DNA of 64,000 nt from an uncultured archaeon (GTDB lineage: Archaea > Asgardarchaeota > Lokiarchaeia > Sigyniarchaeales > SOKP01). Both the position numbers and the translations under genes were made by a program. This document shows positions 9,963 through 56,857 of the stretch, one piece after another. The stretch covers positions 16,985 through 80,984 of the forward strand of contig CAZALK010000020.1 in NCBI GenBank assembly GCA_964486045.1, written 5' to 3'. Within the stretch, counting starts at the first letter, position 1; every line of letters begins with the position of its first letter. The notes below the pieces were generated by a model, which searched no databases, was not told where the DNA came from, and was given only the letters and a program-made list of their open reading frames with translations.

Positions 9963-12113
9963 ATGACTCAAAACGACATCTCCTTTTTCTTTAACCCCGC
10001 AAGCATCGCAGTTATTGGCGCAAGTGCTATAGAGGGTAAACTTGGTAATACAGTTTTAAATAATATTATTAAATCTGGGTATAAAGGAAAAATTTTTCCA
10101 ATTAATCCCGGAACTGATAAAGTTTGTGATATTCCATGCTATAAAAGTGTTCTAGATGTACCAGAGAATATTGACATTGCTATTTTTGTAATCCCTGGTA
10201 AATTTGTAAATCCTGTTGCTGAAGAATGTGGTAAAAAAGGAGTAAAGGGATTAATAGTAATTTCTGATGGATTTAAAGAAATTGGAGGAAAGGGTGTAGA
10301 AAGAGAGGAGCACCTAATACAAATTGGCAAGAAATACGATATGAGAATTTTAGGTCCTAACTGCTTGGGATTCATTGGACTTAACTATAATGGTTCATTC
10401 GCTACCGAAACCCCTAAAAAAGGGGGAATTGCTATGATTTCACAATCAGGTGCTATGCTTACAGGCATGATGGATTATTCCATGACACAAGCTTTTGGAT
10501 TCTCCTATAATATTAGCCTTGGGAATAAAGCTGACTTAGGAGCAGTAGACTTTATAGAATTTTTAGCGGAAGATGAAAATACCAGTGTTATCTTATGCTA
10601 TCTAGAAAGCATAACTAATGGTCAGAAATTTTTAGAAATTCTGCCTGAAGCTACACGAAAAAAACCAATTGTTATTTTGAAATCAGGAGTAAGTGAAGCT
10701 GGCGCTAGAGCTGCGTCTAGTCATACTGGAGCACTGGCAGGCGCAGATATTGCGTATGATCTTGCTTTTGAAAAATGTGGTGTTATAAGAGCCAAAACAA
10801 TAGAAGATCTATTTGACTATGGTGAAGTTTTCTTGTATCAGCCTGTTCCTGCGAATAATTCTTTTGCAATAATAACAAATGCTGGAGGTCCTGGAATTGT
10901 TGCTACTGATGCATTTGAACGAGAAAATTTGAAATTTGCTAGTTTTTCAGAGTCAATACTTCATGCACTAAGAACAGGATTGCCTTTACACGCATCAATT
11001 TTTAACCCAATTGATATTATTGGGGATGCTACTCCTGATAGATATGATTTTACAATTAAAACCATTTTTGGTTTAAACGGTAAAACAGAATCCAATGAAA
11101 TTTCAACCCAAGGTGTTTTAATAATTGTTACTCCACAGGCTCCAACAGAACCAACTAAAGTAGCAAAATTAATTCATGAAATTTCTACTCATCATTTAGA
11201 AGAAAAGCCAATTGTATGTTCCTTCATCGGAGGAAAAAATATGTCGGAGGGTAGAGAATACTTAAAACAAAATCATATCCCTTGTTATCACTTTCCAGAC
11301 CGAGCAGCCCACTCATTAAAAACACTCGTAAAAAGAGGTAAATACTTAAAAAGTACTCCCCTAAGTGATTTAAAAATTCCCAAATTTGAAGTAAATAAAA
11401 AAAGAGTAGATGAAATATTCGCAAGTATTAGAGAAGATAAGAGAACGGTCTTATTAAGCTATGAAACAAGCGAGGTTTTTGATTGTTATGGAATTAAATC
11501 CCCTACTTCTAGACTAGCCAGAACTCCTCGACAAGCAAGAAAACTGCTCTCAGAAATCGGTAAATCAGTAATGAAAATTGTTAGCCCACATATAATTCAT
11601 AAAACCGATGTCGGAGGAATTCTATTAAATATTGAGACAGAACAAGATGCTTTTGAGGCTTACATCCAAATTGTAAGTAACGCTAAAAAATTTGGTCCAC
11701 AAAATGCGAAAATTTATGGTGTGGAAGTGCAAAAAATGATCGACTTTAAAACTGAGAGAAAAGTTAATGAAATTATCATAGGGATGTCGGGAGATCCTCA
11801 ATTTGGGCCACTCCTCATGTTTGGTAGTGGTGGAATTTATGCAAACTTCATGCAAGATGTATCTTTCGCTTTAGCGTATAAATTTACCAAAGCTGATGCT
11901 AGAAAATTGATTGAAAGCACAAAAATCTTCAACCTCCTTCAAGGAGTGAGAGGGGAATCACCTTCTGATGTAGAAGCTGTACTTGATGTGCTTCTAAGAT
12001 TATCCCAACTTGTAAATGATTTCCCAGAAATTGTAGAATTAGATATCAATCCTCTTTTAGCATTTGTCAAAGGTTATAGCGCTGTAGATATTAAAATCAC
12101 AATAAAACGATAA
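9963..12113 (+). CDS. ADP-forming acetyl-CoA synthetase (fused alpha+beta; acetate--CoA ligase [ADP-forming])
   Basis: 716 aa. It has an N-terminal CoA-binding block (SIAVIGAS), a succinyl-CoA-synthetase-like flavodoxin domain with SSHTGALAG (phospho-His loop), and a C-terminal ATP-grasp domain. Confidence 0.85.
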   Translation: MTQNDISFFFNPASIAVIGASAIEGKLGNTVLNNIIKSGYKGKIFPINPGTDKVCDIPCYKSVLDVPENIDIAIFVIPGKFVNPVAEECGKKGVKGLIVISDGFKEIGGKGVEREEHLIQIGKKYDMRILGPNCLGFIGLNYNGSFATETPKKGGIAMISQSGAMLTGMMDYSMTQAFGFSYNISLGNKADLGAVDFIEFLAEDENTSVILCYLESITNGQKFLEILPEATRKKPIVILKSGVSEAGARAASSHTGALAGADIAYDLAFEKCGVIRAKTIEDLFDYGEVFLYQPVPANNSFAIITNAGGPGIVATDAFERENLKFASFSESILHALRTGLPLHASIFNPIDIIGDATPDRYDFTIKTIFGLNGKTESNEISTQGVLIIVTPQAPTEPTKVAKLIHEISTHHLEEKPIVCSFIGGKNMSEGREYLKQNHIPCYHFPDRAAHSLKTLVKRGKYLKSTPLSDLKIPKFEVNKKRVDEIFASIREDKRTVLLSYETSEVFDCYGIKSPTSRLARTPRQARKLLSEIGKSVMKIVSPHIIHKTDVGGILLNIETEQDAFEAYIQIVSNAKKFGPQNAKIYGVEVQKMIDFKTERKVNEIIIGMSGDPQFGPLLMFGSGGIYANFMQDVSFALAYKFTKADARKLIESTKIFNLLQGVRGESPSDVEAVLDVLLRLSQLVNDFPEIVELDINPLLAFVKGYSAVDIKITIKR

Positions 12114-12159
12114 TAGGTACATTGTTAAAAAATAAAATAAAAATAAATATATAAAAGAA

Positions 12160-13233
12160 TTGAAGAAGATGGTAAAAGTATTTTATTTATGTTCATTGAG
12201 AGAACGTGCTGGGAAAAGTTTCCTTTCGATTGGATTCATCCAGAAATTAAAGAAAGCTGGTAAAAAGTTTGCCTATTTTAAACCAATTGGGGTCCCAAGA
12301 GCGGCCTTTTCCAGCAAATCTGATTCAGATGTTGATTTTGTCCTCAATACAGTATATGAAACTGACCATCCCTATGATCTAATTTCTCCAGTTTCAATTC
12401 CAGCTTCATATTATGTAGATTTAGTTGATGCTAATAAAAAAGGTGGATACCTTCTAAAGATTAAAAGCGCTTATGATGAACTCACTAAAGATGTTGATTA
12501 TGTGGTTATTGAAGGGAATCCAAGTATTAGGAAATTTGTACGAACAGGAATTGATGATGTGACTATAGCACAGAATCTTGGTATTAAAGAATTAATCTAT
12601 GTTTCTGTAGATTCAAGTGATCGATGTATTGATAACTTCTTTTTTACGAAAGAATATTTTGATTTCCGTAAAATCGGCATTTTAGGTGTTCTTTTTAATA
12701 AAATAGATTTTGAATATATTGCAAGAATTAAAGAGATCTCAGAAGACCATATTAATCGATATAATATTCCCGTTTTAGGTATTATCGAAAAAAGCGTAGA
12801 AATATTCTCACCACGAGTGAACGAGATAATAGAGCAAATTGGGGGAGAATTACTAAATGACTCAGCATCAGCAGGATTGAATAACCTCGTAGAGACCTTT
12901 CTCATTGGTGCAATGAATGCTCAGAGTGCTTTAAAATATTTACAGCAAGTGAAAAAAGCAGCATTTATCACGGGAGGAGATAGAACAGACCTCGCACTGG
13001 CAGCACTTGATCAAGATGTATCAACATTAATCCTAACAGGTTTCATCCAACCCGATATGGGTGTTATTACTGCGGCAAATAAAAAGGGAATTCCAATTAT
13101 CTTGAGCCCCTCTGATACTTATACTACCATGAGAAATTTAGAACGTTTGAAACCAGGAATTCAAGAAGATGAAATAGAAAAAGTTTTAAAGATAATTGAA
13201 AAAGAGATTGACTGGGATTTTTTATTAAAATAA
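12160..13233 (+). CDS. DRTGG-domain protein related to the phosphotransacetylase N-terminal region
   Basis: 357 aa. A DethiobiotinSynthase-like N-domain is followed by FITGGDRTDLALAAL (DRTGG motif). It lies immediately downstream of the acetyl-CoA synthetase. Confidence 0.65.
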   Translation: MKKMVKVFYLCSLRERAGKSFLSIGFIQKLKKAGKKFAYFKPIGVPRAAFSSKSDSDVDFVLNTVYETDHPYDLISPVSIPASYYVDLVDANKKGGYLLKIKSAYDELTKDVDYVVIEGNPSIRKFVRTGIDDVTIAQNLGIKELIYVSVDSSDRCIDNFFFTKEYFDFRKIGILGVLFNKIDFEYIARIKEISEDHINRYNIPVLGIIEKSVEIFSPRVNEIIEQIGGELLNDSASAGLNNLVETFLIGAMNAQSALKYLQQVKKAAFITGGDRTDLALAALDQDVSTLILTGFIQPDMGVITAANKKGIPIILSPSDTYTTMRNLERLKPGIQEDEIEKVLKIIEKEIDWDFLLK

Positions 13234-16572: not shown

Positions 16573-17682
16573 ATGATCAATAAATTTTATGAGAATCTAG
16601 CTGCATTAGTAGTTAATTATTCCGTAAAAGTAAAAAAGGGAGATAGAATATATATTACTGGTCCTGCTTTCGCTAAAGAACTCTTTCAAGCTCTCTATGT
16701 TGAAATTATAAAATCTGGGGGAAATACTTTTCTTCTACCACAAATAGAAGGAATTGGAGAACTAAAATATAAATATGCATCTGAAGAACAATTAATATAT
16801 GTAGATCCCATTTTTAAATTATTACTCAAAGAAATTGATGGTTACATATTAATACAAGGAGATTATAATACTCGGAAATTAAGTTTGATCGATCCAAGAA
16901 AAATTGCAAAATCTCAAGGATCACCTGATAACCGGGAGCTCTGGGAAATTTTAATGGATAGGATTGGTAGAAAGAATCTTAGTTACCTTGTTGTGCCATT
17001 TCCGTGCAATTCATTAGCCCAAGAAGCAAATATGGATTTATTTTCCTATTTTGAGTTTGTCCAAAATGCTTAGTTACTTCACAAAGATGATCCTGTTAAA
17101 GAATGGTCAGAAATCGATAAAAAACAACAAAAGATTTGTGAAGTTTTAGATAATGTTGATAAAATTCAAATAATTGGTGAAGATACAGATTTAGCACTTT
17201 CAGTGAAAGGGAGAAAGTGGATTAATTGTTCTGGACAATTAAATTTACCTGATGGAGAGGTTTGCACAGGACCATTAGAAAACTCTGCTAATGGACATAT
17301 TAGATTTACATATCCTGGATTATATCAAGGGAGAGAAATTACAAACATATATTTGGAATTTAAAGACGGAATAGTTTTAAAAGCTACAGCAGAAAAAGGG
17401 GAAGAGATATTAAAAGAAATATTAAAAATTGAAAATGCTGATAAGCTAGGGGAATTTGCTATCGGGACGAATTATGGAATCACTCAATATACTAAAAATA
17501 TATTATTTGACGAGAAATTGGGAGGTACAATACATCTTGCTCTTGGGGGAGGACTTGAAGAAGCTGGTTCTAACAATAAAAGTGCTCTACATTGGGACAT
17601 TATAAAAGATATGAAACAGTCTGGATCAAAAATTCTTGCTGATGATAAAATTATATATGAAGAAGGAAAGTGGAAGATATAA
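16573..17682 (+). CDS. M29 family aminopeptidase (AmpS/PepS-like), interrupted by one in-frame TAG at 17071..17073
   Basis: Track ORFs 16573..17073 and 17203..17682 are in the same frame. The 129-nt gap reads LLHKDDPVKEWSEIDKKQQKICEVLDNVDKIQIIGEDTDLALSV with no further stop, and this aligns with the conserved DPV-x-x-W ... G-TDL block of AmpS. C-terminal blocks LGEFAIGTN and HLALG are present. Confidence 0.8.
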
Positions 17683-18787: not shown

Positions 18788-21700
18788 ATGCACATAAATC
18801 AAAAGATTTCTCTTAAAAAAAAGAGGATCAATTGCTTATTTGTTATAATTTCGATGTTTTTTTTAATTTTATTCATTAATTTGAATTTAATCAATAATTC
18901 GAATCTAACTATCTATGATTCAAAAAATCCAAATGAAGACCATAATGATTCCTTTCAAAATATAAAAACTTCCAATTCAGAATCTATTTTATTCCAAGGA
19001 ACTGAAGCCCATTTAAATATAACTGATACTGGTAATTTCTATGAATATAATCAAGAGATATCAGTATCGAATCAAGGGGAAACAAATTTAACATATTATT
19101 TAGACGATGTACATGACTGGAAAGGTTCAACAATAGAAACTACGATAACAAATATTCAAGATACTAGAAATTGGATTAATAATTCTGGATTTAAATCTCC
19201 TATAATTTATAGAGTATATCAAGTCTTTCAGACAGATCATAACTATTCAAATAATAATAATCTAAATTGGGCTAGTCCAGAATCTTCTGTTTTTGAGTCA
19301 GGAGCAAAATATATTAGAGTTCATTTTGTTAATTTTTCTTTTGAGCTAAGTTATGATTTTTTATATCTTGCTAATGAAACTAATGATATCTACTATGTGA
19401 ATGATAGTAAAGCATATGATTTATTTTCTCCGTGGATTCCTGGGGAATATATCAAAATAGATTATGATTCTGATAATTCTGTTGATGATTATGGTTATTA
19501 TATCGATTATTATGAATATATTAATGATAGTTCAAATACCGTAATTAATTCAGAATGGAGTTTTAATTATAACCAAATTGGAACAACTGGAAGGAATTAT
19601 AATGGGGTAAGTGAGATTGACAATAGTACAGCTATGTATGTTGCTATGTATGCAGAATATCTGGATTACAATCAATTTAGTTATGAAGATGGAGCATTTT
19701 CTGAAGTTTATCAGGATTTTAGTATACCTAGAGGTACAGTAAGTGACGCTTACATAAGTTTTGATTATTATGCTCAATATGGATTAGCAACGAATGATAA
19801 CTATGTATATGTTTCAATTAATAATAAAAAAATATATTCCAAAGGAATTGCAGATCTATTAGAGTTAGGTAAGAACCAATGGCATAAAACTGGAAAAATC
19901 ACTACTAATTTTTGGGTTAATTCTTCTTCTATTTTTGATTCAAATGTTCAAAATCAGCAATTTAATATTTCAATAGGGATAAAATGTGCTGGTGGGTATA
20001 CATACACTAATTTTGATGATGGCTTTTTAAATATTATTTGGTTTGATAATGTATCCTTAGTTTTATCAACAATAGGAAACTCAAGCCAAGATGATATAAA
20101 TTTAAAAATTAATTCAGAGAATTTATTTGAAGGAAATGAATGGGGGTTTTCAAACTTAAACTTCACCGGAATTTGGGAAACAAATCCAGTAACTCTATCA
20201 ATAAATACAACATCGCCGGATCTAAATTTCATTTTAAATACTACGATATATGGGAATCACTCTGGGACTTCAAAAATTAATCAACAAAATGATGAAGGAA
20301 TTAGCTATAAAATTTTGAATAACGGGTCAATTTATTGGGATTTTTTTCACAATTTTTATATGCCCTCTCAATACTCTGATTTTGAATTCAATATACAAAA
20401 GCCAAAAAATTGGAAATTTTTAGATAGTTTAGATCCTACTCTACAATCTCGATCATATGAAGGTGGAGATATAGGAGATTCATTTTTGAAGATTAACAAA
20501 ACAAATGCAATTTTTCCTGGATGGTGGTCATTTAGAGCTGAATCTCCTAATTACCTTAATATTTTAAATTCTAAAATACTTAAGGAAAGTCAGTGGGTTA
20601 CAAATGCGTCATTTAACACCGGAGAATCAACTCGAATAAAAACTCAATTAAATTACTCAGGTGAAATACCAAATGATGCAGGAGTAATTAATCTTACAAT
20701 ATATCATCCCAATGGAACGATTTTTTATGAAGAAAGCGTAGCGCCATTCGGTGGTAATGTATCATTTTCAGAAATTACCTTTGGGGTGTATAATACTAGT
20801 GGCGGTCTTTATGAATATACTCTATTTTGGAGTAATAGTACTGCATTAGGAGGTTTAATATCAAGTTTTATTGTCATGCATCAAAGTTCAATAACTTTAT
20901 TAAAACCGGATAATGCAATTTCCGATTTAATAACAGATGCTTTTTTTGGAGATATAATTCCATTACGGATCCAATTAAAAGATTTAGAAAATAATAGATC
21001 ACTTTCAGGAGCCATGGTTACTTATAATTGGTCAACAGGGTTAGAGAACTTTGCAGAAGCAGCTTTAGGAATATATGAAACAATATTAGATACCTCTGAA
21101 TTAAATTCAAATGGCTTTTATGAGATTTTCATCAATTCTTCCAAACTTGGATTTACAAATTATAATATAACAGTAAAAATCAATTTGCTTGAGGAAACTA
21201 ACTTACTCCGCTTGGAATCATCGTATTATATTGAATTACATGATAATAGTACAGTTAAATATAGTTATACTAATTTTTCAGGAGGTGGTATTTCAAGTGC
21301 TATTGTAGACATTAATTTAAATAATTCCTATTAGAGTATAACAGATTTTCTTGACGGTAATTATACTGTAGAATTCGATACTTCATATATTAATAATTTA
21401 GGAGTTCATCAAATAGAATTAAACTTTTCTAAACCTGCATTTGAAACTAAATATGCATTACTTCAGTTTGAAATAATAGAACAGTCTGTAAATTTGTCTG
21501 TATATATAAATTCTCAAAAAATTCAAGAAAACTCATTAATCGAAGCGATGTTTAAAGGAACTTTAAATATATCCGTAAGAATTTTTGCTACAATTGATGA
21601 GACCTATCTTTCAGGAGGTAATGTGACATGGGATTCTGACAAATATTATAAAGAAATTTTAGAAGGATCAAATTCTTGGTTTAATTATTCAATTCAATTA

Positions 21701-23590
21701 TCAAGTAACAATTTCTCAATGGGTTTAAATTTCGTGCTCATACAATTTGAGCAAGCAAATTATAGAATCAGCAGTTTTGGGTTCCAAATATTAATGGAAG
21801 CGCAAACTGTAAACATATCAACGTTTATAAATGGAGAAGAAATTCCTGAAAATTATATTGAAGAGTTAACTTTCAAGGAATCAATGAATATTTCAGTAAA
21901 AGTATTTGCTAATGGTGAGAGTGTTTATTTATCTGGGGCAAATGTCACATTAATCGGTGATACCCTTAACACAATAGTACCTGAAACTGTTTTTCCATGG
22001 TATAATACTTCCATTATAATTTCGAATTCTTATTTTAACCCCGGTGTAAATTATGTTTATTTAAAATTTCAACTTGAAAATTATACAACAGACACTTTTT
22101 CATTTCAATTGATAATCAAAACCCAAACACTTAATTTGTCTGTATATGTAAATTCAGAGAAAATATCAGAAAATAATCTTTTAGAATTCAGATTTAATGA
22201 AGAATTCTCTATTTCTGCCCAGAGTTTTGCGACTGCAGAGGAAGTTTATTTAACTGGAGGAATATTAACTTTTATTGCTAGTACTTATGAAAAAAACTTA
22301 ACAAATCTTTCCGATTGGTATAATTCAACAATATCCTGTTCACCAGACATTTTCTCAATAGGAGTTAATTATATATATTTGAGATTTCAAAAGGAGAATT
22401 ACTCTACAACTCTTTTTTCTTTTCAATTACTAATTGATCAAATTGATCTTCAAGTAGATTCGATAGGTTTTGAGGACACTATTAATGTCGAAATAGGTGA
22501 GACATTTATTATTCAGCTAAAACTATTAAATCCTAATAATAATATGACGATTGAGTCCGCTACTATAAGTTTCACGTGGGAATATGGATTTGGAGTGTTT
22601 AACGCTACACAAAATGGAATTTATCAATATACATTAAAATTACCTAAAAATCTAAGAGGAAATTATCAATTTAATCTAATTATTATTCCAGATAATACAA
22701 CTTATAAAGCAGTCCAACATTCTTTTGTTGTTGTAATTAATGAGCCAATTATCCAAAATAATTCTCCAGGATTTTTATTATTGAGCATTATTCTCATTTT
22801 AATTGGTATTGTGAGTGCATTAGGAGTTCTTAGTTTGAGATCTTATGTATTATTGCCAAGAAGAAGGAAAAAGGAATCAGAATTATTATCGAAGACTCAA
22901 AGATTCAAGGATCTTAAAAATATTCAAGCAATTGTTATGATACATAGAATAAGTGGAATACCACTTTACACAAAGACTTATTCGATTTTAGAAAAGCATA
23001 AAAAAGAATTGTTTTCAGGGTTTATTCAAGCTATTACAACAATTGGAGAAGAATTTACTGATTCTGAAGAAATAGAGAGTAGATTGGATGCAAAGAAAGA
23101 AAACTTCGGAATTGAAAAGATAATTGAATTAGATTTTAAATATTTTTATTGCTTAATTTCGGATAAAGAAGATATAAGAATAGTATTTATCCTCAAAGAA
23201 AAATCTTCAGAACGACTGAAAAGTCAAGTTTCACATCTTTTGCTGGCTTTAAACCTCAAATTATCACAATATATAGAAGATTGGGATGGTTCTTTAGACA
23301 TATTTGAGGAGATGGTTCCTACGATAATAGGTGAGTATTTCGAGTTATATTATAAAGGCTCATTTAAACTTCCTAAAAAATTAAATCTTTTTAAATTAAG
23401 GAAAGATAAGTCTCTGTCGAAGATGGAAATTCGAGTTCTAAATGTAGTTGAATCAATGTTAAAAAGGGGTGAGGAGATTCTAACTTTAAACAGTATTCTC
23501 GAATTGGTTAGTGAAGAAAATAAAGATCTGATTATTGAAGCAATTGAGGTATTGATAGAAAGAAAATTAATTATTCCCGTCAATCCTTAA
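18788..23590 (+). CDS. giant (about 1600 aa) sequon-rich surface protein with one TM helix and a cytoplasmic longin-like + wHTH tail; interrupted by one in-frame TAG at 21332..21334
   Basis: Track ORFs 18788..21334 and 21494..23590 share a frame. The gap translates without stops and continues the 107-aa repeat pattern (..LLQFEIIEQSVNLSVYINSQKIQEN). Features are an N-terminal anchor/signal helix (CLFVIISMFFLILFINL), very many N-x-S/T sequons, and SPGF + TM (LLLSIILILIGIVSALGVLSL) + RRRKKE. A roughly 240-aa tail follows. Confidence 0.75.
21482..22444 (+). repeat. three tandem 321-nt (107-aa) coding repeats inside the surface protein, with a more diverged copy upstream spanning the TAG
   Basis: Repeat heads are QSVNLSVYINSQKIQEN, AQTVNISTFINGEEIPEN and TQTLNLSVYVNSEKISEN. 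Shared blocks are NISV..FA...E.VYLSGG.VT and G(V/L)N(Y/F)..L.FQ..NY....F.FQ, at a period of 107 aa counted by hand. Confidence 0.8.
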
Positions 23591-23638: not shown

Positions 23639-24259
23639 ATGGTAAATCCAGAAGAACTAAGATTTATCTGCACAAGATGTGGGAACTGTTGTACAGATCG
23701 CGATACTATTGTTAATATTACATACTTAGATATTTTAAGATTAAAAACAAGTTTAAAATTAGATCTGAAAGAAACCATTGAAGTTATTGGATTTTATGTA
23801 TTTCACAAGAAGTTAACTGAAAGAAACTTGAAGAAAATGGTTGTTTCTCCAATAGAAACTGAAAGGGGTTTAGCATTTACTGGTCTTCTTAAAAATAGCT
23901 TAGGTGAGTGTTATTTTTTTGATAATAAAAAATTGGAATGTTTAATTTATGATGTAAGACCTATGCTTTGTAGAACTTTTCCTTTCTCCTTTTATACAAC
24001 CAAGAATATTGAAAATCAAGCTAAAGGAAAGGTTGAGATTTGTTATACTGAGAAAGCTAAGGAATATTGCCCGGGTATAGGTTTAGACTCAGAAATTATT
24101 GAACATGATCACTGGTTAAAAATTGGTAAAGAAACTTTAAAACAACTAAAAAAAAACCATCTTTTTAATGAAAAATGGAATATTAACGTCAAAAATGGAA
24201 GTATATTACCAAAAGTGAAAAATTATCTTAGAACTATATTTAAGATTAACGAAACTTAA
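23639..24259 (+). CDS. YkgJ-family (UPF0153) cysteine-cluster protein
   Basis: FICTRCGNCCTD is present at the N-terminus, with later CLIYDVRPMLCRTFPF and CPGIG blocks typical of the zinc/iron-chelating YkgJ family. Confidence 0.7.
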   Translation: MVNPEELRFICTRCGNCCTDRDTIVNITYLDILRLKTSLKLDLKETIEVIGFYVFHKKLTERNLKKMVVSPIETERGLAFTGLLKNSLGECYFFDNKKLECLIYDVRPMLCRTFPFSFYTTKNIENQAKGKVEICYTEKAKEYCPGIGLDSEIIEHDHWLKIGKETLKQLKKNHLFNEKWNINVKNGSILPKVKNYLRTIFKINET

Positions 24260-28269: not shown

Positions 28270-28908
28270 TTATTCCCTTTTAACGATGTCTAATTGTTCT
28301 AATTTTTTAAGTGCATCAGCAATCTCATTTCTTTTCGAGCTTAACATTCTCGAAATTTTCAGAGCTGAATTTTTTCCAGTGCATAATAAAGCAATTTGAA
28401 AATCATAATCGGTTATTAAACCCATTGTCAAGACTTTTTCTAATACACTTTTTGCGACCAGCAATTCAGGAAATCCTTCTGCGATTTTTCCTCCCCTTGT
28501 TAGATTTTCAACATCAGCATTTAATGTTTGAAATCGACCCTTTTCCGTTGTAGCTCTAAAGACTTTAAGATCTGACTGATGCTTTTTCCAAAATCTTTTT
28601 GCAATTTTATGAATTACATCCTTTATTTTTTCTGTATCATCATCTGCGTCAGAAATCGAACAAAATAAGACTCTAGATAAAGGATGATAATAAATTAGAA
28701 CAGTTGAATCTTCAGATTCTATAACTCTATTCATCTCATTCACTCGTCTTCCCTTTACCATTGATTCTTGAATGATATCGATTGTTTTACTAATCACATT
28801 AAAAAATCCAGTTAAAATATCATCTTGGATTTTTTTTAATTCTTTAAAGGTTGATTCAAAAAGTGAAATTCCATTATCTCCATCGATTAAATAAACTTTA
28901 TATATCAA
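28270..28908 (-). CDS. longin-like (SNARE-like fold) domain + C-terminal winged-helix protein
   Basis: 212 aa with a TTG start. IYKVYLIDGDNGISLFESTF..ILTGFFNVISKTIDII..TVLIYYHPLSRVLFCSISD follows a beta-beta-alpha-beta-beta-beta-alpha pattern. It aligns with the cytoplasmic tail of the 18788..23590 protein. The C-terminal ALKISRMLSSKRNEIADALKKLEQLDIV is wHTH-like. Confidence 0.55.
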   Translation of the reverse strand: MIYKVYLIDGDNGISLFESTFKELKKIQDDILTGFFNVISKTIDIIQESMVKGRRVNEMNRVIESEDSTVLIYYHPLSRVLFCSISDADDDTEKIKDVIHKIAKRFWKKHQSDLKVFRATTEKGRFQTLNADVENLTRGGKIAEGFPELLVAKSVLEKVLTMGLITDYDFQIALLCTGKNSALKISRMLSSKRNEIADALKKLEQLDIVKRE

Positions 28909-29059: not shown

Positions 29060-30307
29060 ATGAAAACAAAGAAAGTATTTCTTTTTATGTTCTTATTTTT
29101 TTTTCCGGTATCAATTTCAGCTTATCCGAACTTACCGACACCATCAACAATGTTGGATAATTTTCCATTCACATCTTCCCCTGATTATGGTGTTTCTAAT
29201 TATAATATTACCCAAAGTGTAAAATATAATATAGAAATCAACTTTACTTTAACTCACAAATCAGGTCCTGGTTCCTATTATTTTAAATTTGCACGATTAA
29301 ATAACAGAATGCCAAACTCAACAAAGTCTCAATATACTCCCCCTTATCAAGAGAGTAATCTTTTATATAATAATATAACAGGATACTCAGTGCTTAATAT
29401 GGACCATAATGACCAATTTAATAACACTTATGACTCTTTTAACGCAACATTACTACCCGAAGAAACAGTTACATTAAGTCAACACTATATCACTGAAGTA
29501 AATGCTATCAATTTTCTGGAAGTTGATATGGCAGATATTGAGGTCTATAATACGTCAGATGAAATATTCTCTTTATATTCTAACAATACAGAACTATATT
29601 ATGAGCGAAACAATTCCGTTTTAGTTGATTTGTCTAATAACCTTGTAGATCCAGCTGATAATCCGATAGAAAAAGCGCAGAAGATTTTTAACTGGGTTAT
29701 AAGCAACCTTGAATATAATGGAGAGTTACCTGCTCAAGAAAAGGGAGCCCTTTGGGCTTATAATAATCTAAAGGGAGATTGTAGTGAATATTCGAGTTTG
29801 ATGATTACATTATTACGTATTCAAGGTATACCAGCTCGCAAAATAACCGGATTCTTAGTATCTAATAACCTCGCTTTGAGACCTCAAGCAGGTAATTCTT
29901 GGAACTTCTATGTCTCAGATTCAGGCGATAACATGTTAGGACATGCTTGGATTGAATATTATGTTCCTAATATTGGCTGGATTGCAAGTGATCCTACTTG
30001 GAAAACAGGTTATTTTAATAATATTGATTATCTTCGGTTCCATCTCAATGTAGGAGCGAACATCTTTTTTCCTCCTGATAGTACTGTGAGTGAGTTTGCT
30101 AATCCCATTTTTGCTTATTCTGGAGGAGCAACCTTTACATTTAGTTATGACATTGATATAACCGTTATAGAGTCGAACCTGTTACCGTTGGAGCAATTCC
30201 CATTATTGTTTGCTATATTTATTGGGGTAGGGGCTGCCGCTGTGCTATTTACACTGATTATTATAATAAAAAGAAGTCGCAAGAAAGATTTTTTTGAATA
30301 TGAATAA
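29060..30307 (+). CDS. secreted/membrane-anchored transglutaminase-like cysteine protease-fold protein
   Basis: It has a signal peptide (KKVFLFMFLFFFPVSISA). The Cys-His-Asp core is GDCSEYSSL...GHAWIEYY...ASDPT. A C-terminal TM anchor is followed by KRSRKKD, and an oligo-T run follows the stop. Confidence 0.8.
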   Translation: MKTKKVFLFMFLFFFPVSISAYPNLPTPSTMLDNFPFTSSPDYGVSNYNITQSVKYNIEINFTLTHKSGPGSYYFKFARLNNRMPNSTKSQYTPPYQESNLLYNNITGYSVLNMDHNDQFNNTYDSFNATLLPEETVTLSQHYITEVNAINFLEVDMADIEVYNTSDEIFSLYSNNTELYYERNNSVLVDLSNNLVDPADNPIEKAQKIFNWVISNLEYNGELPAQEKGALWAYNNLKGDCSEYSSLMITLLRIQGIPARKITGFLVSNNLALRPQAGNSWNFYVSDSGDNMLGHAWIEYYVPNIGWIASDPTWKTGYFNNIDYLRFHLNVGANIFFPPDSTVSEFANPIFAYSGGATFTFSYDIDITVIESNLLPLEQFPLLFAIFIGVGAAAVLFTLIIIIKRSRKKDFFEYE

Positions 30308-30339: not shown

Positions 30340-31806
30340 CTAAATATAAGTATGGATTAACTCCAGCAGATTTTTTGAGAAATCTGGTAAGTTTTTCTCT
30401 ATTTTTTTAATTTCAAGAGATTTTTCAATAAACATTAGTAAATATAAGTTATATTTTTCAACTTGGATTTTTTTAAAAACAACTTTCTTAGAGTCGTCAG
30501 CAATTCCGGTGGATACTAAAAAATCTTGTTTCAATACTTTGAATTCCTTAAAGGTTTTATACAAGGTTTGAAAGTGAGGTGCTGAGATTTCAAAAACCCT
30601 GTCAGATATCTCAGATTTTGAAAAATTGGATAATATTATTCCATTTTCGTTAAGTAATAAAATTGCGTCTGAATTCGTTTTTCTTGCGAATTGCTTCAAT
30701 TGATTTCTGAATAATTCTCGATTAGGACTTAACTGAGAAAGTCCATATGAATAAGCAGTAATAAGACTCCAATGGTCGAAAATACTAGTTTGGAATATTT
30801 TAGTTAAAAATCGATCAGATCTCTTTTCTACCTCATCAGCAATAATTTCTAAATTTTTAAATATTTCTTTTGAACCCTTCAGATCAGGATCGAATTTATT
30901 TAAACACACAACTATGGGCGGAAATTCATCTAATTCGACTAATATTTTCGAAATTCTTTGGAAAAGATTTAATGCTTCTTCAATTCTCTCTACATCTTGT
31001 ATATCAATAAAGAAGAAAATTAGATCAACATTATATAAATAGACTTGACTTTGCTCAAGAAATCTTTCTAAATATTTTTTTTGGCCACCTATATCCCATA
31101 GAGAGATTAACGAGTTCTGTTCTTCAAATATATTCTCTTCTGTTCTTTCAACACCTTTAGTAGGTAATGATTTGATAATTTCTGAATATTTCTTTCTGAT
31201 TCCATAAAGAAAACTTGATTTACCAGCCTTATCTAATCCTGTCAATAATATTTTAATTTGTCTTTTTGGAGAAAAAGGATCTTTTAATTCTTTTGTAAAC
31301 TCGAATAGTTCTTCTCTAATATCATCCATTATTCGTTTCTGGTCATTAAATTCTTTTACATTCTGAATTTGTGTAGCTGTTTTATCGATTATAATCCTTA
31401 AATATTTCATATTTTCATAAAAAAAAACCTTATCTTCTTCGTCAATTAATACAGTTATTGTCGCAGCTAGTGCTTGACCGCGTGCTTTTTCATCAGGGAT
31501 AAGAAAAAAATAAGTTAAGCCATTCAATTTTAAATCAGGAAAAGGAAGAATTCCAAAGTAGTTAACTCCTATGTCTGATCCCTGAGAATTTTGATAAACT
31601 GAATCACCCATAAGCAAACTAATAGTTTTCATAGCTATTAGAAGTCCTGATTTCTCTTCTAGGTTAGAAGGCCATATTATTCTAGGTGTTGGGCCTTTTT
31701 CATCAAAAATACTTAAAACAACCGCTTTTATTAGATTGGATTTTTTGTCACCTGTATCGTTTCCTTTCATCTTCTTCTTATTCGAATTTGAGTCGGTTTT
31801 TGCCAA
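30340..31806 (-). CDS. three-domain GTPase: N-terminal longin-like domain + Rag/Gtr-like G domain + C-terminal roadblock-like domain
   Basis: 488 aa. The N-domain covers about aa 25-145 (LIKAVVLSIFDEKGPTPRIIWP...ILPFPDLKLNGLTYFFLI). G1 is LLTGLDKAGKSS, G3 is WDIGGQ, G4 is NKFD and G5 is QTSIFDHWSLITAYS..LSP (as in Rag TSIWD...LIP). About 125 aa of alpha/beta C-domain follow. It ends in TAG. Confidence 0.7.
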   Translation of the reverse strand: MAKTDSNSNKKKMKGNDTGDKKSNLIKAVVLSIFDEKGPTPRIIWPSNLEEKSGLLIAMKTISLLMGDSVYQNSQGSDIGVNYFGILPFPDLKLNGLTYFFLIPDEKARGQALAATITVLIDEEDKVFFYENMKYLRIIIDKTATQIQNVKEFNDQKRIMDDIREELFEFTKELKDPFSPKRQIKILLTGLDKAGKSSFLYGIRKKYSEIIKSLPTKGVERTEENIFEEQNSLISLWDIGGQKKYLERFLEQSQVYLYNVDLIFFFIDIQDVERIEEALNLFQRISKILVELDEFPPIVVCLNKFDPDLKGSKEIFKNLEIIADEVEKRSDRFLTKIFQTSIFDHWSLITAYSYGLSQLSPNRELFRNQLKQFARKTNSDAILLLNENGIILSNFSKSEISDRVFEISAPHFQTLYKTFKEFKVLKQDFLVSTGIADDSKKVVFKKIQVEKYNLYLLMFIEKSLEIKKIEKNLPDFSKNLLELIHTYI

Positions 31807-31969
31807 TGTATTCCCTTATCTCTTGCATTAAAATAAGTGATGTTAGATTTTTATTATTATCTCTAACTTATAGTTTAATAAAATCTTGAAATCACATTAA
31901 TAGATCCAAAATAACAATTATTATTAAATCATTACTTTTCTCTCTGAAAAACTGATAATTAAAAAAAAA

Positions 31970-44381: not shown

Positions 44382-45284
44382 TTAAAATAAAACTTTTAAA
44401 GGATTACTTTTTGAAATCTCTTTTTTTAAAACTCTTTTCCTATAATAGGAATTGACCCCAGAGATCAGAGCAACCGCAGGTACCACACATTTTGCGAACT
44501 TAAGTGGACCAAATAAAATGAAATCGCTTGGTGCACATGCACAATATACCATGATAGAGGCTATACTACCACATCGTGCAACCTCTCCATATTTCTTTAT
44601 AAAATCCCAACCATAAATCACATTAGCAGGAGCACATCCTGTAGGTAATCCAAACTTATTTTTTACTAAATGAGATGTCTCAAAATTTATTGAAATTGAT
44701 GGTAGATCTAACACTGCTGAATCGACCAAAATATTTTCAATTTTTGCCTTCAATGCTTTTGGAATTAATATTTCTTCTAATAATTTTAATTTCTGCATAG
44801 GAAAAAGATATCTTCTCCCAAAAGTTAACAAAATTGCGTTTCTGACCCCGATATTTTTTAATCTTTCAAGGTTTTCCTCGGTTGTCGCTTCATCTATACT
44901 GTTTAAAATAGCTCGATCAAGCAATCCTATTTCTTTTAATCCTTCCATTGCAGGAATACGAGAAAAATCAGTTAACCCATCAACCAAAAAAGGATAATCA
45001 ACAATATCAGCTACAAATTCACACTCTTTTATGAGTGCTTTAGGGTATGCACCAACGACATCAATTATTCCCTGCATTTTTGTGTCTTCAATAATTTCAG
45101 TAAATTCATTTAATTCGTTTTCAACGAGTAGTTTATCTATTTCACCGGTTTTCTCATTTAATAGCGCATCGTGATTCCCGTAAAAAACAGTACCGATCAT
45201 CGCAATAGGGTTTTGGCCAGGATTTCCCCCAATTCGATTCTTCCCTATTTGCAATACTTTCTGTTCGGTTTCGAAATTTAGCAT
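44382..45284 (-). CDS. mtrH: MtrH-family corrinoid:tetrahydromethanopterin/THF methyltransferase
   Basis: The N-terminus FETEQKVLQIGKNRIGGNPGQNPIAMIGTVFY matches the conserved MtrH start (F-x-x-EQ-x-V-x-x-I-G-x-x-x-I-GG-x-PGE-x-P-T-x-x-x-G-T-I-FY). The length is 300 aa. Confidence 0.8.
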   Translation of the reverse strand: MLNFETEQKVLQIGKNRIGGNPGQNPIAMIGTVFYGNHDALLNEKTGEIDKLLVENELNEFTEIIEDTKMQGIIDVVGAYPKALIKECEFVADIVDYPFLVDGLTDFSRIPAMEGLKEIGLLDRAILNSIDEATTEENLERLKNIGVRNAILLTFGRRYLFPMQKLKLLEEILIPKALKAKIENILVDSAVLDLPSISINFETSHLVKNKFGLPTGCAPANVIYGWDFIKKYGEVARCGSIASIMVYCACAPSDFILFGPLKFAKCVVPAVALISGVNSYYRKRVLKKEISKSNPLKVLF

Positions 45285-45358
45285 AATTCATGAATTTTTC
45301 GTTGTTATTTAATATAAAGAGAAAAATGATTCTATTATTCTGCGTGAACAATTATCAT

Positions 45359-46231
45359 TTATACTTTATTTTCTGCAAATGGTTTATCCAACATTAGTAA
45401 TTTAATAAAATTCGACACTTTATCATCGGGAATTATCAAGAATTTTCCTTTTATAGAATAACCATGAGCTTTTGCCCATGGATTCATTTTTTCAGAATAA
45501 GTCTTTTTATCCATCCGTAACACCTTTCTGATTAAATTTAACTCAACTTTTTTTAATTTAGTGACAATTTCCTTTATTTTTTTCTTTCTATTATTCTTTA
45601 CTGGCTCTCCCACCAAGGTTCCAACATATATAATGCTAATTATAAACTCGGGAATATACCGATGCATTAGAAGGACAATAATCGCAGCAATAAACGAGCT
45701 TGCGGCACTGATCGAGAAGTGAATATCTACCCAAGCATATCCAATATTATATAATTGAATTTGAATCAACATTCGGATAATATTGACAACATAAAAAATA
45801 ATTGATGAAATAATAAGAGCTTTAGTTTTTCTCCAAACTACATCCCTTTTTGTTTCCCTATCTTGGCTATGTGGCGTGAAAACAATCACACCTACAAAGA
45901 TGACAATTGCCTGAACGCCTGTACAAAATGTCTCAAAATAAATGGATGATTTCCCAGGAATATTAAATTTCCAATGATACAATGGTCCTGGTTCATGAAC
46001 AGCTGTAGCATTCATATTAAAAAAAAGATTTAGAAAATAAACTGTTTGCTTAACTGTAATTTCGTGTAACCAGTAATTCATCTCTAAATCGAAAAACAGA
46101 TAAACCAAATAAGCAGAAATGGGTGCACCTATAGCTAATAAAATCAGAGATCTTATTGAAAAGATATATTTCTTTTCATTAAATTCGATTATTGGCTTTT
46201 TAAAATTCATTAATTCTTTAAACTTCTGCAT
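45359..46231 (-). CDS. archaeosortase/exosortase-family membrane protein with soluble C-terminal extension
   Basis: Multi-pass membrane protein with ordered Cys...Arg...His candidates: ETFCTGVQAIV, VVNIIRMLIQ and VDIHFSISAAS. An extra charged C-terminal region of about 85 aa is present. Confidence 0.5.
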   Translation of the reverse strand: MQKFKELMNFKKPIIEFNEKKYIFSIRSLILLAIGAPISAYLVYLFFDLEMNYWLHEITVKQTVYFLNLFFNMNATAVHEPGPLYHWKFNIPGKSSIYFETFCTGVQAIVIFVGVIVFTPHSQDRETKRDVVWRKTKALIISSIIFYVVNIIRMLIQIQLYNIGYAWVDIHFSISAASSFIAAIIVLLMHRYIPEFIISIIYVGTLVGEPVKNNRKKKIKEIVTKLKKVELNLIRKVLRMDKKTYSEKMNPWAKAHGYSIKGKFLIIPDDKVSNFIKLLMLDKPFAENKV

Positions 46232-46451
46232 CCAATTTTTCCTCTCTGTCTTTCAAATGTTTAAAATGGTAATGAAATCTGTCTATAATTACATAATTTA
46301 AAATTAGTAATAATGGAATCATTACAAACCCAAGATTATAAGAACTCTCTGAAGTTAATAAAGGAATAGAATACCCAATTATAAATGCAAACAATAAGTT
46401 AATAGATAATAATAGCCAAATTAATACTTTCTTCTTAATTATTTGTTCCAT
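46218..46451 (-). CDS. small two-helix membrane protein
   Basis: 77 aa. It overlaps the start of the archaeosortase-like gene by 14 nt, suggesting translational coupling. Confidence 0.4.
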   Translation of the reverse strand: MEQIIKKKVLIWLLLSINLLFAFIIGYSIPLLTSESSYNLGFVMIPLLLILNYVIIDRFHYHFKHLKDREEKLDAEV

Positions 46452-55505: not shown

Positions 55506-55807
55506 ATACGACATAGAAACCGAGAAGATCCAACTCACTGAATATTTAGAAATGTTAAGATTTATTTTTACTTTTAGTTTTAAATTCAAAAATCTTAAAT
55601 AAAAATTACTTATTATACTGAACTAATAAAAATTTTCGTCAAAAGAAGAGATAACAGATGAAGGTTGTCTTATTTAAGACAATTTTTTAAATATTTTAGA
55701 TGTAAAGATTCTTAATTAAAATAACACCAATATTTTATAAAACTACATATATAAGTTTACAAATGAAGAAAGACTAACTATTTTGTTATATAACGCATTT
55801 CTTTATT

Positions 55808-56857
55808 ATGATGAAAGAGATTATTAAATCTATTGTCTACACCTCAATGGATGAGAGGTTAGGACCGAGTCCGCATTTATGGTTGCCATTAGATTTACCC
55901 GAAGATATTCGAATGGGAGTAAGCATAAAATCAATTACGATGCTTACAACAGATCAAGGAATTATCCCTAAATCATTAGTAATCATGCCCTTCCCTTCTT
56001 TTGGACAAAAAGGATTGATAAAATATATTGAACGTGCAGATGATTCTCGCCGCGGAGGTATAGCATTATCATCAATTACACTATTATTTGATGAAGCCGA
56101 TGATCTTATTTTCTATAAATACTTGGATTACCTTGAAACTGCGTTTTCTAAAAGCGCCCAGAAAATTATTGAATTAGAAAATCAGAATGCAGAAAGCGTT
56201 GAGATTTATGCAGAGATAAATATCCTTCGAAAAAACCTCACAGAAATTTTAAATGATTTACAAAACAAAGAAAAATCAATTATTGAAGGAAAGGCGTTTC
56301 CTAAAGAAGAAACTGATAAAGAGTTAGTTGGATTTCATTCCAAAATTATTGTATGTGGAGATCCATCTGTAGGTAAAACCAGTACTATCCTACGATTTAC
56401 TGATAACGCTTTCATCCGTACTTATATCCCTACTTTAGGTGTAAGTATTTCTGAGAAAACTATCAAAATAAAAGAAGAGTATGTGAATTTAATCTTTTGG
56501 GATATAGCTGGACAAAGTAAATTTGAAATGATGAGGAGACATTTTTATCAAGGTGCAGAAGCGGTAATTGTTATATTTGATCTAACAAATCGTAAGTCAT
56601 TTGAAAGTGTTTCAGGTTGGTATAAGGACATAAAGAGGTACATCGAAATCTACCAAAACACTTTAATAGGGTTTGTTTTAGGAAATAAAGAGGATTTAGT
56701 TGGTGAGAGGAAAGTTTCAACTGCAGAGGCTAGTAGTGTAGCCAAAAGTCTAAACATTGGATACGTCGAGACTTCAGCTAAGACTGGTAAAAATGTTGAA
56801 CAGTTATTTTATAGAATAGCAGATTCTTTATTAAAAACAAAAAAAAAAAATGATTAA
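55808..56857 (+). CDS. N-terminal longin-like domain + Rab/Ras-like small GTPase (paralog of 53440..54492)
   Basis: 349 aa. The N-domain reads IIKSIVYTSMDERLGPSPHLW...LVIMPFPSFGQKGLIKYI. G1 is VCGDPSVGKTS and switch I is YIPTLGV. G3 is WDIAGQSKF, G4 is GNKEDL and G5 is ETSAKTGKNV. There is no C-terminal Cys (no prenylation motif). Confidence 0.75.
   Translation: MMKEIIKSIVYTSMDERLGPSPHLWLPLDLPEDIRMGVSIKSITMLTTDQGIIPKSLVIMPFPSFGQKGLIKYIERADDSRRGGIALSSITLLFDEADDLIFYKYLDYLETAFSKSAQKIIELENQNAESVEIYAEINILRKNLTEILNDLQNKEKSIIEGKAFPKEETDKELVGFHSKIIVCGDPSVGKTSTILRFTDNAFIRTYIPTLGVSISEKTIKIKEEYVNLIFWDIAGQSKFEMMRRHFYQGAEAVIVIFDLTNRKSFESVSGWYKDIKRYIEIYQNTLIGFVLGNKEDLVGERKVSTAEASSVAKSLNIGYVETSAKTGKNVEQLFYRIADSLLKTKKKND

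Follow-up and report, generated by a model that had tools for sequence, protein, structure and literature searches.

A 64,000-nt stretch from an uncultured Lokiarchaeia archaeon (contig CAZALK010000020.1, positions 16,985 to 80,984; G+C content ~29%), referred to here as the window, carries on its forward strand a gene for a giant surface protein (18788..23590) which is interrupted by an in-frame TAG and whose product ends in a conserved module of 244 residues, hereafter the tail. Within the family to which this gene belongs, a surface ectodomain joined by a transmembrane (TM) helix to a cytoplasmic longin-like/winged-helix-like tail is the rule, and the conserved, defining part of the family is the TM helix, the juxtamembrane motif, and the ordered tail. 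We give a probability of roughly 60% to the reading that this is a conserved Asgard (Lokiarchaeia-type) type I surface protein whose cytoplasmic longin-winged-helix tail docks or regulates a small GTPase or pairs with a longin protein. Longins and GTPases in Asgard archaea were already known; what is new is a large, unannotated, and apparently Asgard-specific family with a new architecture, and in the literature searched we found no giant type I surface protein described as having a longin-winged-helix module for its cytoplasmic tail.

Under this reading, a Sec-type signal peptide would export a long, variable, N-glycosylatable, and repeat-built ectodomain, an ordinary TM helix would then halt transfer, and a basic juxtamembrane stretch would hold the last 244 residues in the cytoplasm in keeping with the positive-inside rule. 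The tail, made up of a juxtamembrane helix, a domain of the longin/roadblock fold, and a small winged-helix-like domain, would act as a membrane-fixed protein-protein module. By docking or regulating a small GTPase, or by pairing with a longin protein such as the stand-alone one encoded at 28270..28908, it would couple the cell surface to the Asgard GTPase machinery. A GTPase-related function and heterodimerisation are what we infer from the fold and the gene context, the GTPase link being our best guess because of the fold, a conserved Gly/Arg pair with apparent counterparts in NPRL2, and a neighbouring gene for a Rag-like GTPase.

Topology, family, and predicted structure of the tail

When the frame is read through the TAG, the product is 1600 aa long and contains only two hydrophobic segments by hydropathy. 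The first is a signal-like segment at aa 12-37 (18821-18898), which follows the basic n-region KKKR, and the second is a single TM helix of 21 residues, LLLSIILILIGIVSALGVLSL, at aa 1330-1350 (22775..22837), which has the character of a stop-transfer anchor. The first 848 codons (18788..21331) comprise the signal-peptide-like start and a sequon-rich ectodomain, as judged from the open reading frame (ORF) list, hydropathy, and sequon counts. The ectodomain continues at 21335..22765 with three tandem repeats of ~107 aa (21482-22438), ~40% identical to one another in a self-comparison, and a last membrane-proximal domain (22439-22765). It contains 55 N-x-S/T sequons, compared with 26 expected from its composition, which bears out the sequon richness claimed in an earlier note made from the letters of this DNA, and the tail, which is rich in Lys and Glu, contains none. 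That note had also described a PGF tripeptide, a TM helix, and a basic cluster followed by further residues, and the sequence reads just so: PGF lies directly before the TM helix (22766..22774), RSYVLLPRRRKKE follows it, and 244 residues run from the Pro therein to the stop codon at 23588-23590. The basic juxtamembrane segment, RSYVLLPRRRKKESELLSKTQRFKDLKN (22838..22921), has a net charge of ~+5. Because the basic cluster follows the TM helix and sequons occur only in the ectodomain, the tail is placed in the cytoplasm; from this distribution of charge and sequons, the protein bears the marks of a type I membrane protein with its ectodomain outside. Orthologues begin at an equivalent site. The start codon is ATG in the window, and in a group of related loci (L017-L022 and L030, e.g., L020 from 5876) the apparent start of several orthologues is a TTG with a conserved (A)AGGGGAT(A/T)T motif a few bases before it.

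A profile search of the tail against 1.84 billion representatives retrieved 875 proteins at E ≤ 1e-3 and 487 at E ≤ 1e-10, the family size of ~875 being a count of clusters at 50% identity. Most of the profile matches listed are 700-2275 aa long and carry the tail at or near the C-terminus, with 80-400 extra residues beyond the winged-helix segment in some members. All of the named members that we saw come from Asgard archaea, including the cultured Candidatus (Ca.) Lokiarchaeum ossiferum (UYP45688.1, 2145 aa) and Ca. Harpocratesius, and the family appears to be Asgard-specific. The names of these proteins in their sources are "hypothetical protein" or absent, with the one exception of an "Ig-like domain-containing protein". 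Immediately before the tail, 54 of 60 diverse members have a strongly hydrophobic segment, and the others have one near the threshold.

The juxtamembrane motif is conserved across the family as LSLRSYVxLPRKRKKE[AS]ELLxxTQRFKDxxNIQA, the tail core is marked by the elements SG(I/L)P, SGF(I/L)QAI, ELDFKYF, and D..D.R.V.IL, and the C-terminal segment of the tail is conserved as LxKME.R.LNV…NKDLII.AIE.LI..KIIIP. In tail numbering, P1, D19, N22, G34, L52, G55, F56, A59, I60, R108, L113, and G145 are each kept in at least 90% of 61 sequences ranging down to ~18% identity; the P, D, and N of this set are the near-invariant residues of the juxtamembrane segment. Conservation is highest in the juxtamembrane segment and the longin core, not in the winged-helix part. 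At a separate locus (L081), a 457-aa ORF on the opposite strand (10819..12192) beside a paralogous giant gene also matches the tail profile with an E-value of 1.5e-15, a pairing that suggests that the tail module was locally duplicated or has diverged.

We predicted the structure of the tail with AlphaFold2 (AF2) from a 21-sequence alignment. A disordered tail, a possibility that the earlier note had raised against itself, is not what the model predicts: the mean predicted local distance difference test (pLDDT) score is 78.6, with 81-91 in the core, the predicted template modelling (pTM) score is 0.72, and the sole disordered stretch comprises residues 69-86. The basic juxtamembrane segment forms a long helix (residues 2-22), after which come strands at 23-30 and 36-41, a helix at 47-70, strands at 88-93, 98-104, and 107-113, and helices at 119-141 and 148-161. 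The result is a five-stranded antiparallel sheet with the element order of the longin/roadblock fold, beta-beta-alpha-beta-beta-beta-alpha-alpha, and on the combined grounds of the AF2 model, Foldseek, conservation, and a weak reciprocal profile similarity to the stand-alone protein we assign a longin/roadblock-like domain to 22922..23338. Within it, the near-invariant G34 (22955-22957) sits in the beta1-beta2 loop in an SG-I-P context, the GF(I/L)QAI motif forms part of a helix, and the near-invariant R108 (23177-23179) stands at the start of beta5, at the beta4-beta5 turn (…DKEDIRIVFIL). The last 59 residues (23411..23587; pLDDT 74-89) are modelled as helices at 189-203, 211-217, and 223-235 followed by a short strand, a three-helix-plus-strand unit that we call winged-helix-like from the AF2 secondary structure alone.

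Foldseek searches of the tail model against the PDB returned 36 matches at E ≤ 1e-3, all of them, as far as listed, to longin or roadblock proteins: the sigma subunits of AP-1/2, zeta-COP, LAMTOR/Ragulator, Sec22b, VAMP7, TRAPP subunits, and the Prometheoarchaeum Roadblock2. The best of these E-values fall between 1e-4 and 1e-3, and the Sec22b longin reaches a TM-score of 0.70 normalised to the target. The longin-like core proposed in the earlier note is thus supported at the level of fold, not of sequence, by these predicted structures.

The interrupting TAG

The ORF list gives the window copy of the gene as two forward-strand ORFs in the same frame, 18788..21334 (848 aa) and 21494..23590 (698 aa counted from a TTG). 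The sole stop between them is the TAG at 21332..21334, and the frame is open on either side of it (…NLNNSY*SITDFLDG…). The roughly 1420-aa ectodomain that the earlier note had taken as one ORF is therefore split here, with an 848-aa piece before the TAG and a 751-codon piece after it. Past the TAG, no ATG, GTG, or TTG is met for 53 codons, the first being the TTG at 21494, and the stretch between is nonetheless conserved as protein.

Comparison with related loci addresses whether this is one gene or two. The tail query retrieved 71 close homologues, all from Asgard metagenome bins, and scanning one genome per species gave 128 loci; we retained 80. Where the upstream DNA suffices, nearly every locus encodes the tail as the C-terminal end of one ORF of ~1100-1850 aa. 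The codon aligned with the TAG encodes Tyr (TAT or TAC) in ~55 orthologous loci and Phe in one. The nearest relative, L017, is 84% identical across a 300-aa region around the junction and reads NNSYYNITD, the proteins P0029 and P0011 are unbroken across the site, and ~70 other loci are intact there. The earlier note had named a true stop at 21332 as a sign of two separate genes. The stop is indeed present, but ~55 orthologous loci encode Tyr at this codon and the TAG interrupts a domain midway, so for the family a single gene is the model that holds. Read from these alignments, the surface-protein gene is ancestrally one gene, and in the window copy a conserved Tyr codon has changed from TAT to TAG. 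The TAG itself would reflect a recent nonsense mutation, an error of sequencing or consensus, or a stop that is suppressed.

The explanation that competes most seriously with our reading concerns this copy of the gene in particular: that it is a pseudogene or a split gene in which the TAG is a true stop, only the 848-aa fragment is made and secreted, and the TM helix and tail are unexpressed or expressed aberrantly. We lean against it while giving it real weight. The TAG is, after all, present in the sequence, and a product begun at the TTG at 21494 would have no signal peptide. A second gene in the window, for an M29 aminopeptidase (16573..17682, forward strand), is likewise split by a single in-frame TAG (17071-17073), at a position where 17 of 17 homologous loci encode Leu (TTA/TTG/CTN), so that two conserved genes are interrupted within 64 kb, each by a TAG. 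Another metagenome bin (L002; GCA_054382875.1, JBQSAT010000061.1, 9800..9830) has a 2-nt insertion (TAT TAT AG|AGC) at the very codon of the window TAG. On the other side stand the 751 codons past the TAG, which contain no further stop or frameshift, together with the ~70 intact loci and the identity of 84% across the junction; with the junction so well preserved, the inactivation would have to be very recent, or else the TAG is an error of sequencing or consensus, or is bypassed by read-through.

The M29 gene of the L002 bin is also called as two pieces. We treat the frameshift in L002 as an assembly or mutational coincidence, odd though it remains that it falls at this codon, which may otherwise be a hotspot. 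Alternatively, the TAG at codon 849 and the frameshift at the same codon in L002 could mark a recoding site that yields secreted and anchored isoforms, which we consider less likely. We also considered a reassigned TAG or pyrrolysine and, on the evidence of the window, rejected both. One in-frame TAG stands in place of a conserved Tyr, in the surface protein, and the other in place of a conserved Leu, in the M29 aminopeptidase, which makes either kind of codon unlikely; TAG also terminates five other long ORFs, and the sole tRNA gene within the window is for Pro-CGG.

The stand-alone longin protein, the Rag-like GTPase, and comparison with NPRL2

Downstream of the tail, on the reverse strand, the window encodes a highly conserved 212-aa protein (28270..28908) predicted to consist of a longin domain and a winged-helix domain, an architecture that may be NPRL2/Npr2-like. 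We found 392 homologues of this stand-alone protein, those listed being 70-89% identical to it. Its AF2 model (pLDDT 71.7) has the same order of elements as the tail, including the C-terminal three-helix unit. The earlier note had aligned the two in the longin-like core, and this holds for fold and element order, the similarity in sequence being weak. BLASTP finds 28% identity over 39 aa, and hhalign gives a probability of 23% for the whole profiles and of 62% (E 7e-5, 50 columns) for the longin cores only, the similarity being confined to ~50 residues (beta1-beta2-alpha1), while the winged-helix parts align in register without reaching significance (E 0.023). Nevertheless, the two profiles are reciprocal best matches among the 153 six-frame ORFs of the window (E 9.7e-5 and 4e-3, with next-best matches at 0.2 and 0.11), and the profile of the stand-alone protein also retrieves the tails of paralogues. 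As such, we take the tail and the stand-alone protein to be distantly related or, at minimum, to represent one type of module.

The top Foldseek matches of the stand-alone protein are Npr2/NPRL2 of the SEA and GATOR1 complexes (~250 columns, E 3e-4 to 8e-4, with low TM-scores of 0.2-0.38), followed by Sec22b, VAMP7, and LAMTORs. NPRL2 has a GP motif before beta2 and a catalytic arginine finger, Arg78 (PMC12290439). In the human sequence (residues 1-167, identical in sequence to 6ces_N), we located G20-P21 before beta2 and R78 before beta5 (…HKKYSR78NALLF). The stand-alone protein has an invariant G13 in a G13-I-S context and an invariant R79 in HPLSR79 (…HPLSRVLFCS). From the order of secondary structure elements, we infer that G34 and R108 of the tail and G13 and R79 of the stand-alone protein may be analogous to the GP motif and Arg78 of NPRL2.

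The gene neighbourhood brings these proteins together with a GTPase. Of the 61 loci whose downstream DNA extends to 9 kb or more, 54 have the tail gene, the stand-alone longin-winged-helix gene, and a Rag/Gtr1-like GTPase gene within ~8 kb, and the seven loci without this block are paralogues elsewhere in the genome. The order 3' of the giant gene is a CxxCxxCC gene, two unknowns, an S-adenosylmethionine (SAM) methyltransferase gene, a 163-aa gene, a gene for a helix-hairpin-helix (HhH) protein, and the stand-alone longin-winged-helix gene, after which there follow, usually, a transglutaminase-like membrane protein and then, in all cases, a GTPase of 470-490 aa and NrdD. In the window, the CxxCxxCC gene (PF03692, E 1.2e-11; 23639..24259, forward strand) begins ~50 nt past the giant gene; it lies 45-87 nt past it on the same strand in 54 of the 61 loci and is probably co-transcribed with it. 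The GTPase of the window is a 491-aa protein (30340..31815, reverse strand) with Pfam matches to Gtr1_RagA (E 5e-25), Arf (E 3e-17), and Folliculin (E 1.7e-3), the last being weak, of the folliculin longin type, and located at residues 100-161. This GTPase has 63-89% identity among the 54 syntenic loci, which exceeds the conservation of the tail. We consider the synteny suggestive of a functional link.

GAP-type longins, those of GTPase-activating proteins (GAPs), act as heterodimers of two longin proteins, which makes a pair formed by the tail and the stand-alone protein an attractive model. On the analogy of NPRL2/NPRL3 and FLCN/FNIP, such a pair might even form a membrane-fixed GAP-like complex for the Rag/Gtr1-like GTPase that relays engagement of the ectodomain, a tentative extension that we think fairly unlikely.

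The reading of the tail as a GTPase-docking or longin-pairing module has several points to answer, some of them in the sequences and some in the gene context. Neither Pfam nor NCBIfam has a longin, roadblock, or HTH (helix-turn-helix) model that matches the tail, and pieces of the ectodomain and the 21 tail-family members are likewise without a significant family. Searches of the tail and stand-alone profiles against PDB sequences returned only noise. No match was found when both profiles were aligned by hhalign to NPRL2 residues 1-167, so the link to NPRL2 is one of fold only, and NPRL2 is absent from the top 50 Foldseek matches of the tail itself. The G-I-P of the tail is not the canonical GP, and the correspondence of the arginines comes from the order of elements, not from superposition. 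The gene is interrupted in the window, and the intact protein may not be made here. The block is not an operon, given its mixed strands and the housekeeping genes within it (NRDD, the methyltransferase, and the HhH protein), and may be no more than an order of genes conserved between related genomes. Paralogous family members elsewhere lack the stand-alone protein and the Rag gene. Finally, small GTPases are so common in Asgard archaea that proximity to one counts for little; in the same vein, a search of paralogue neighbourhoods for GTPase and longin genes found a Rab-like GTPase within ~8 kb at only 2 of 10 loci, which is uninformative given this abundance.

Known systems share parts of this architecture. 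Npr2/NPRL2 and Npr3/NPRL3 (GATOR1/SEACIT) have an N-terminal longin followed by helical and winged-helix-like C-terminal domains, an arrangement used in Npr2/NPRL2 for protein-protein and GTPase contacts. The tail would resemble NPRL2 in this domain order and, by the correspondence proposed above, in its Arg before beta5 and its Gly in the beta1-beta2 loop, and a Rag/Gtr1-like GTPase gene is nearby, but it has no detectable sequence similarity to NPRL2, and a GAP role for it would be by analogy. A TM helix joins the tail to an extracellular domain of more than 1300 aa, an arrangement that we did not find described for NPRL2-like proteins in the literature searched. Sec22b, VAMP7, Ykt6, the adaptor sigma and zeta-COP subunits, and the LAMTOR/Roadblock proteins also present a cytoplasmic longin or roadblock module at a membrane. 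The longin SNAREs among them, however, are tail-anchored with an N-terminal longin and no ectodomain, and the window tail has neither a SNARE motif nor sequence similarity to them, whereas the adaptor subunits and LAMTORs are soluble or lipid-anchored. As a functional analogy only, eukaryotic type I adhesion and signalling receptors of the integrin or cadherin kind likewise combine a repeat-built glycosylated ectodomain, one TM helix, and a short partner-recruiting tail; there is no homology to them, and the longin-winged-helix tail is of a different type.

Asgard "NPRL2-like longin" proteins have been reported before (Liu et al., bioRxiv 10.1101/2020.10.19.343400). Reports of Asgard "eukaryotic signature proteins" count longin/roadblock proteins, NPRL2-like longins, and longin-GTPase fusions among the abundant ones, and NPRL2-like longins fused to two-component domains have been reported as well. 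Cultured Lokiarchaeia have no surface layer (S-layer) and many complex surface proteins (PMC9834061). Asgard archaea possess hundreds of longin/roadblock proteins and small GTPases, and the family described here joins a large surface glycoprotein through one TM helix to a conserved cytoplasmic longin-winged-helix module. If the tail recruits or regulates a GTPase, the family would be a candidate for outside-in signalling or for coupling of the surface to the cytoskeleton in the closest prokaryotic relatives of eukaryotes. If the GAP-like pair were true, it would amount to a prokaryotic pathway from a transmembrane receptor to a GTPase, with a logic ancestral to that of GATOR/Rag signalling. 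If the tail is merely an anchor, a new unannotated protein family would still have been described and a false PGF-CTERM lead removed. The member from Ca. Lokiarchaeum ossiferum, UYP45688.1, makes the family testable.

DNA binding, the PGF tripeptide, and the archaeosortase

Two other roles for the tail had been put forward in the earlier note, as a DNA-binding output and as the product of archaeosortase cleavage, and we consider both unlikely. In the first, the protein would be a membrane-tethered transcription factor whose ectodomain senses and whose winged helix binds DNA, either at the membrane or after proteolysis, and we judge this quite unlikely. The segment named as winged helix-turn-helix (wHTH)-like in the earlier note is indeed modelled as a helix-helix-helix-strand unit, the equivalent end of the stand-alone protein has a TrmB wHTH match below threshold (20.3 bits, the cutoff being 25.6), seen in 4 of 21 members, and an HTH_24 match in one, and membrane-tethered wHTH regulators of the ToxR/CadC type do exist. 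These too cross the membrane once, placing a winged-helix-like domain in the cytoplasm, and have an extracytoplasmic domain as well. In ToxR, however, the wHTH is N-terminal and the orientation is opposite, while in the window a longin domain precedes an acidic winged-helix segment that matches no HTH family. For the tail itself, Pfam HTH models matched 0 of 21 family members at E ≤ 0.05. The net charge of the winged-helix segment averages -1 (range -5 to +4) in the close tail alignment and ~0 in the 60 diverse members. In the window copy, which has 7 K/R and 11 D/E, the segment is acidic, and its third, putative recognition helix, ENKDLIIEAIEVLIERKL, is acidic and hydrophobic, the family mean charge for this helix being ~0. 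No positive charge is conserved. The concentration of conservation in the juxtamembrane segment and longin core, and the extra residues that some members carry beyond the winged helix, also argue against a DNA-binding output, and in Npr2/NPRL2 the longin-plus-winged-helix arrangement serves protein contacts.

The second proposal was that the PGF tripeptide, TM helix, and basic cluster form a tripartite PGF-CTERM signal at which an archaeosortase encoded in the window cleaves, freeing a fragment with the winged helix. The ectodomain would then be anchored to lipid, and the fragment would comprise the longin and winged-helix parts. The window does read PGF, TM helix, and RRRKKE, and in this respect it resembles substrates of archaeosortase A such as the haloarchaeal S-layer glycoprotein, which are also glycosylatable, a likeness that holds for the window sequence only. 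The archaeosortase gene is genuine as well: the gene at 45359..46249 (reverse strand), 22 kb away, encodes an ArtH (NCBIfam NF041736, E 8e-93, 310 bits against a cutoff of 200). However, of 84 loci just three have PGF (those of the window, L020, and L032), as do 0 of the 60 diverse family representatives, which reach down to ~18% identity. The nearest relative, L017, reads PGL, and most other loci read EFP, QFP, GLP, or GPN. Among family members examined for an internal PGF-TM segment followed by the tail module, a check that the earlier note had proposed, the TM helix and tail proved widespread and the PGF unconserved.

In addition, the segment is internal, with 244 conserved and structured residues beyond it, whereas known signals of this kind are C-terminal. 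NCBIfam scans of the TM region at E ≤ 10 gave no match to a CTERM sorting model, although many weak hits are lost to the HMMER speed filters. On the window archaeosortase, the ArtA model TIGR04125 reaches 27.5 bits against a cutoff of 75; the enzyme is ArtH, and no cognate archaeosortase A is encoded within the window. Under the positive-inside rule, any type I membrane protein shows a basic cluster behind its TM helix. We therefore reject the PGF-CTERM reading, and release of the tail by the archaeosortase, to which nothing points, is very improbable.

In the literature searched, we found no information on the substrates of ArtH. Its gene adjoins a gene for an MtrH-like methyltransferase (44385..45287). 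A possible C-terminus of the sorting-signal type occurs on another protein of the window, the transglutaminase-core membrane protein of the block described above (29060..30307, forward strand), which ends in …EQFPLLFAIFIGVGAAAVLFTLIIIIKRSRKKDFFEYE (30215..30286). This C-terminus has a match below threshold to the NCBIfam model GG_III-CTERM (15.4 bits against a cutoff of 22), a model whose accession neighbours that of ArtH and which matches only the transglutaminase-like protein and not the giant protein. Judged from its sequence, this C-terminus may be a real ArtH-type sorting signal.

Two further observations were made elsewhere in the window. A 359-codon ORF (55778..56857, forward strand) has a C-terminal Rab/Ras-like GTPase domain preceded by an N-terminal domain of ~180 aa, which begins …SMDERLGPSPHLWLP and includes a Gly-Pro; its product may be another longin-GTPase fusion. 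On the reverse strand, two ORFs of ~357 aa (58970..60049 and 60717..61787) lie 0.7 kb apart and have identical 45-residue ends (…YLYIAITEGDYTVTMGILVFSTIIIISGTLIADVAYTIIDPRIIY), which suggests that a membrane (permease-like) gene was recently duplicated in tandem.

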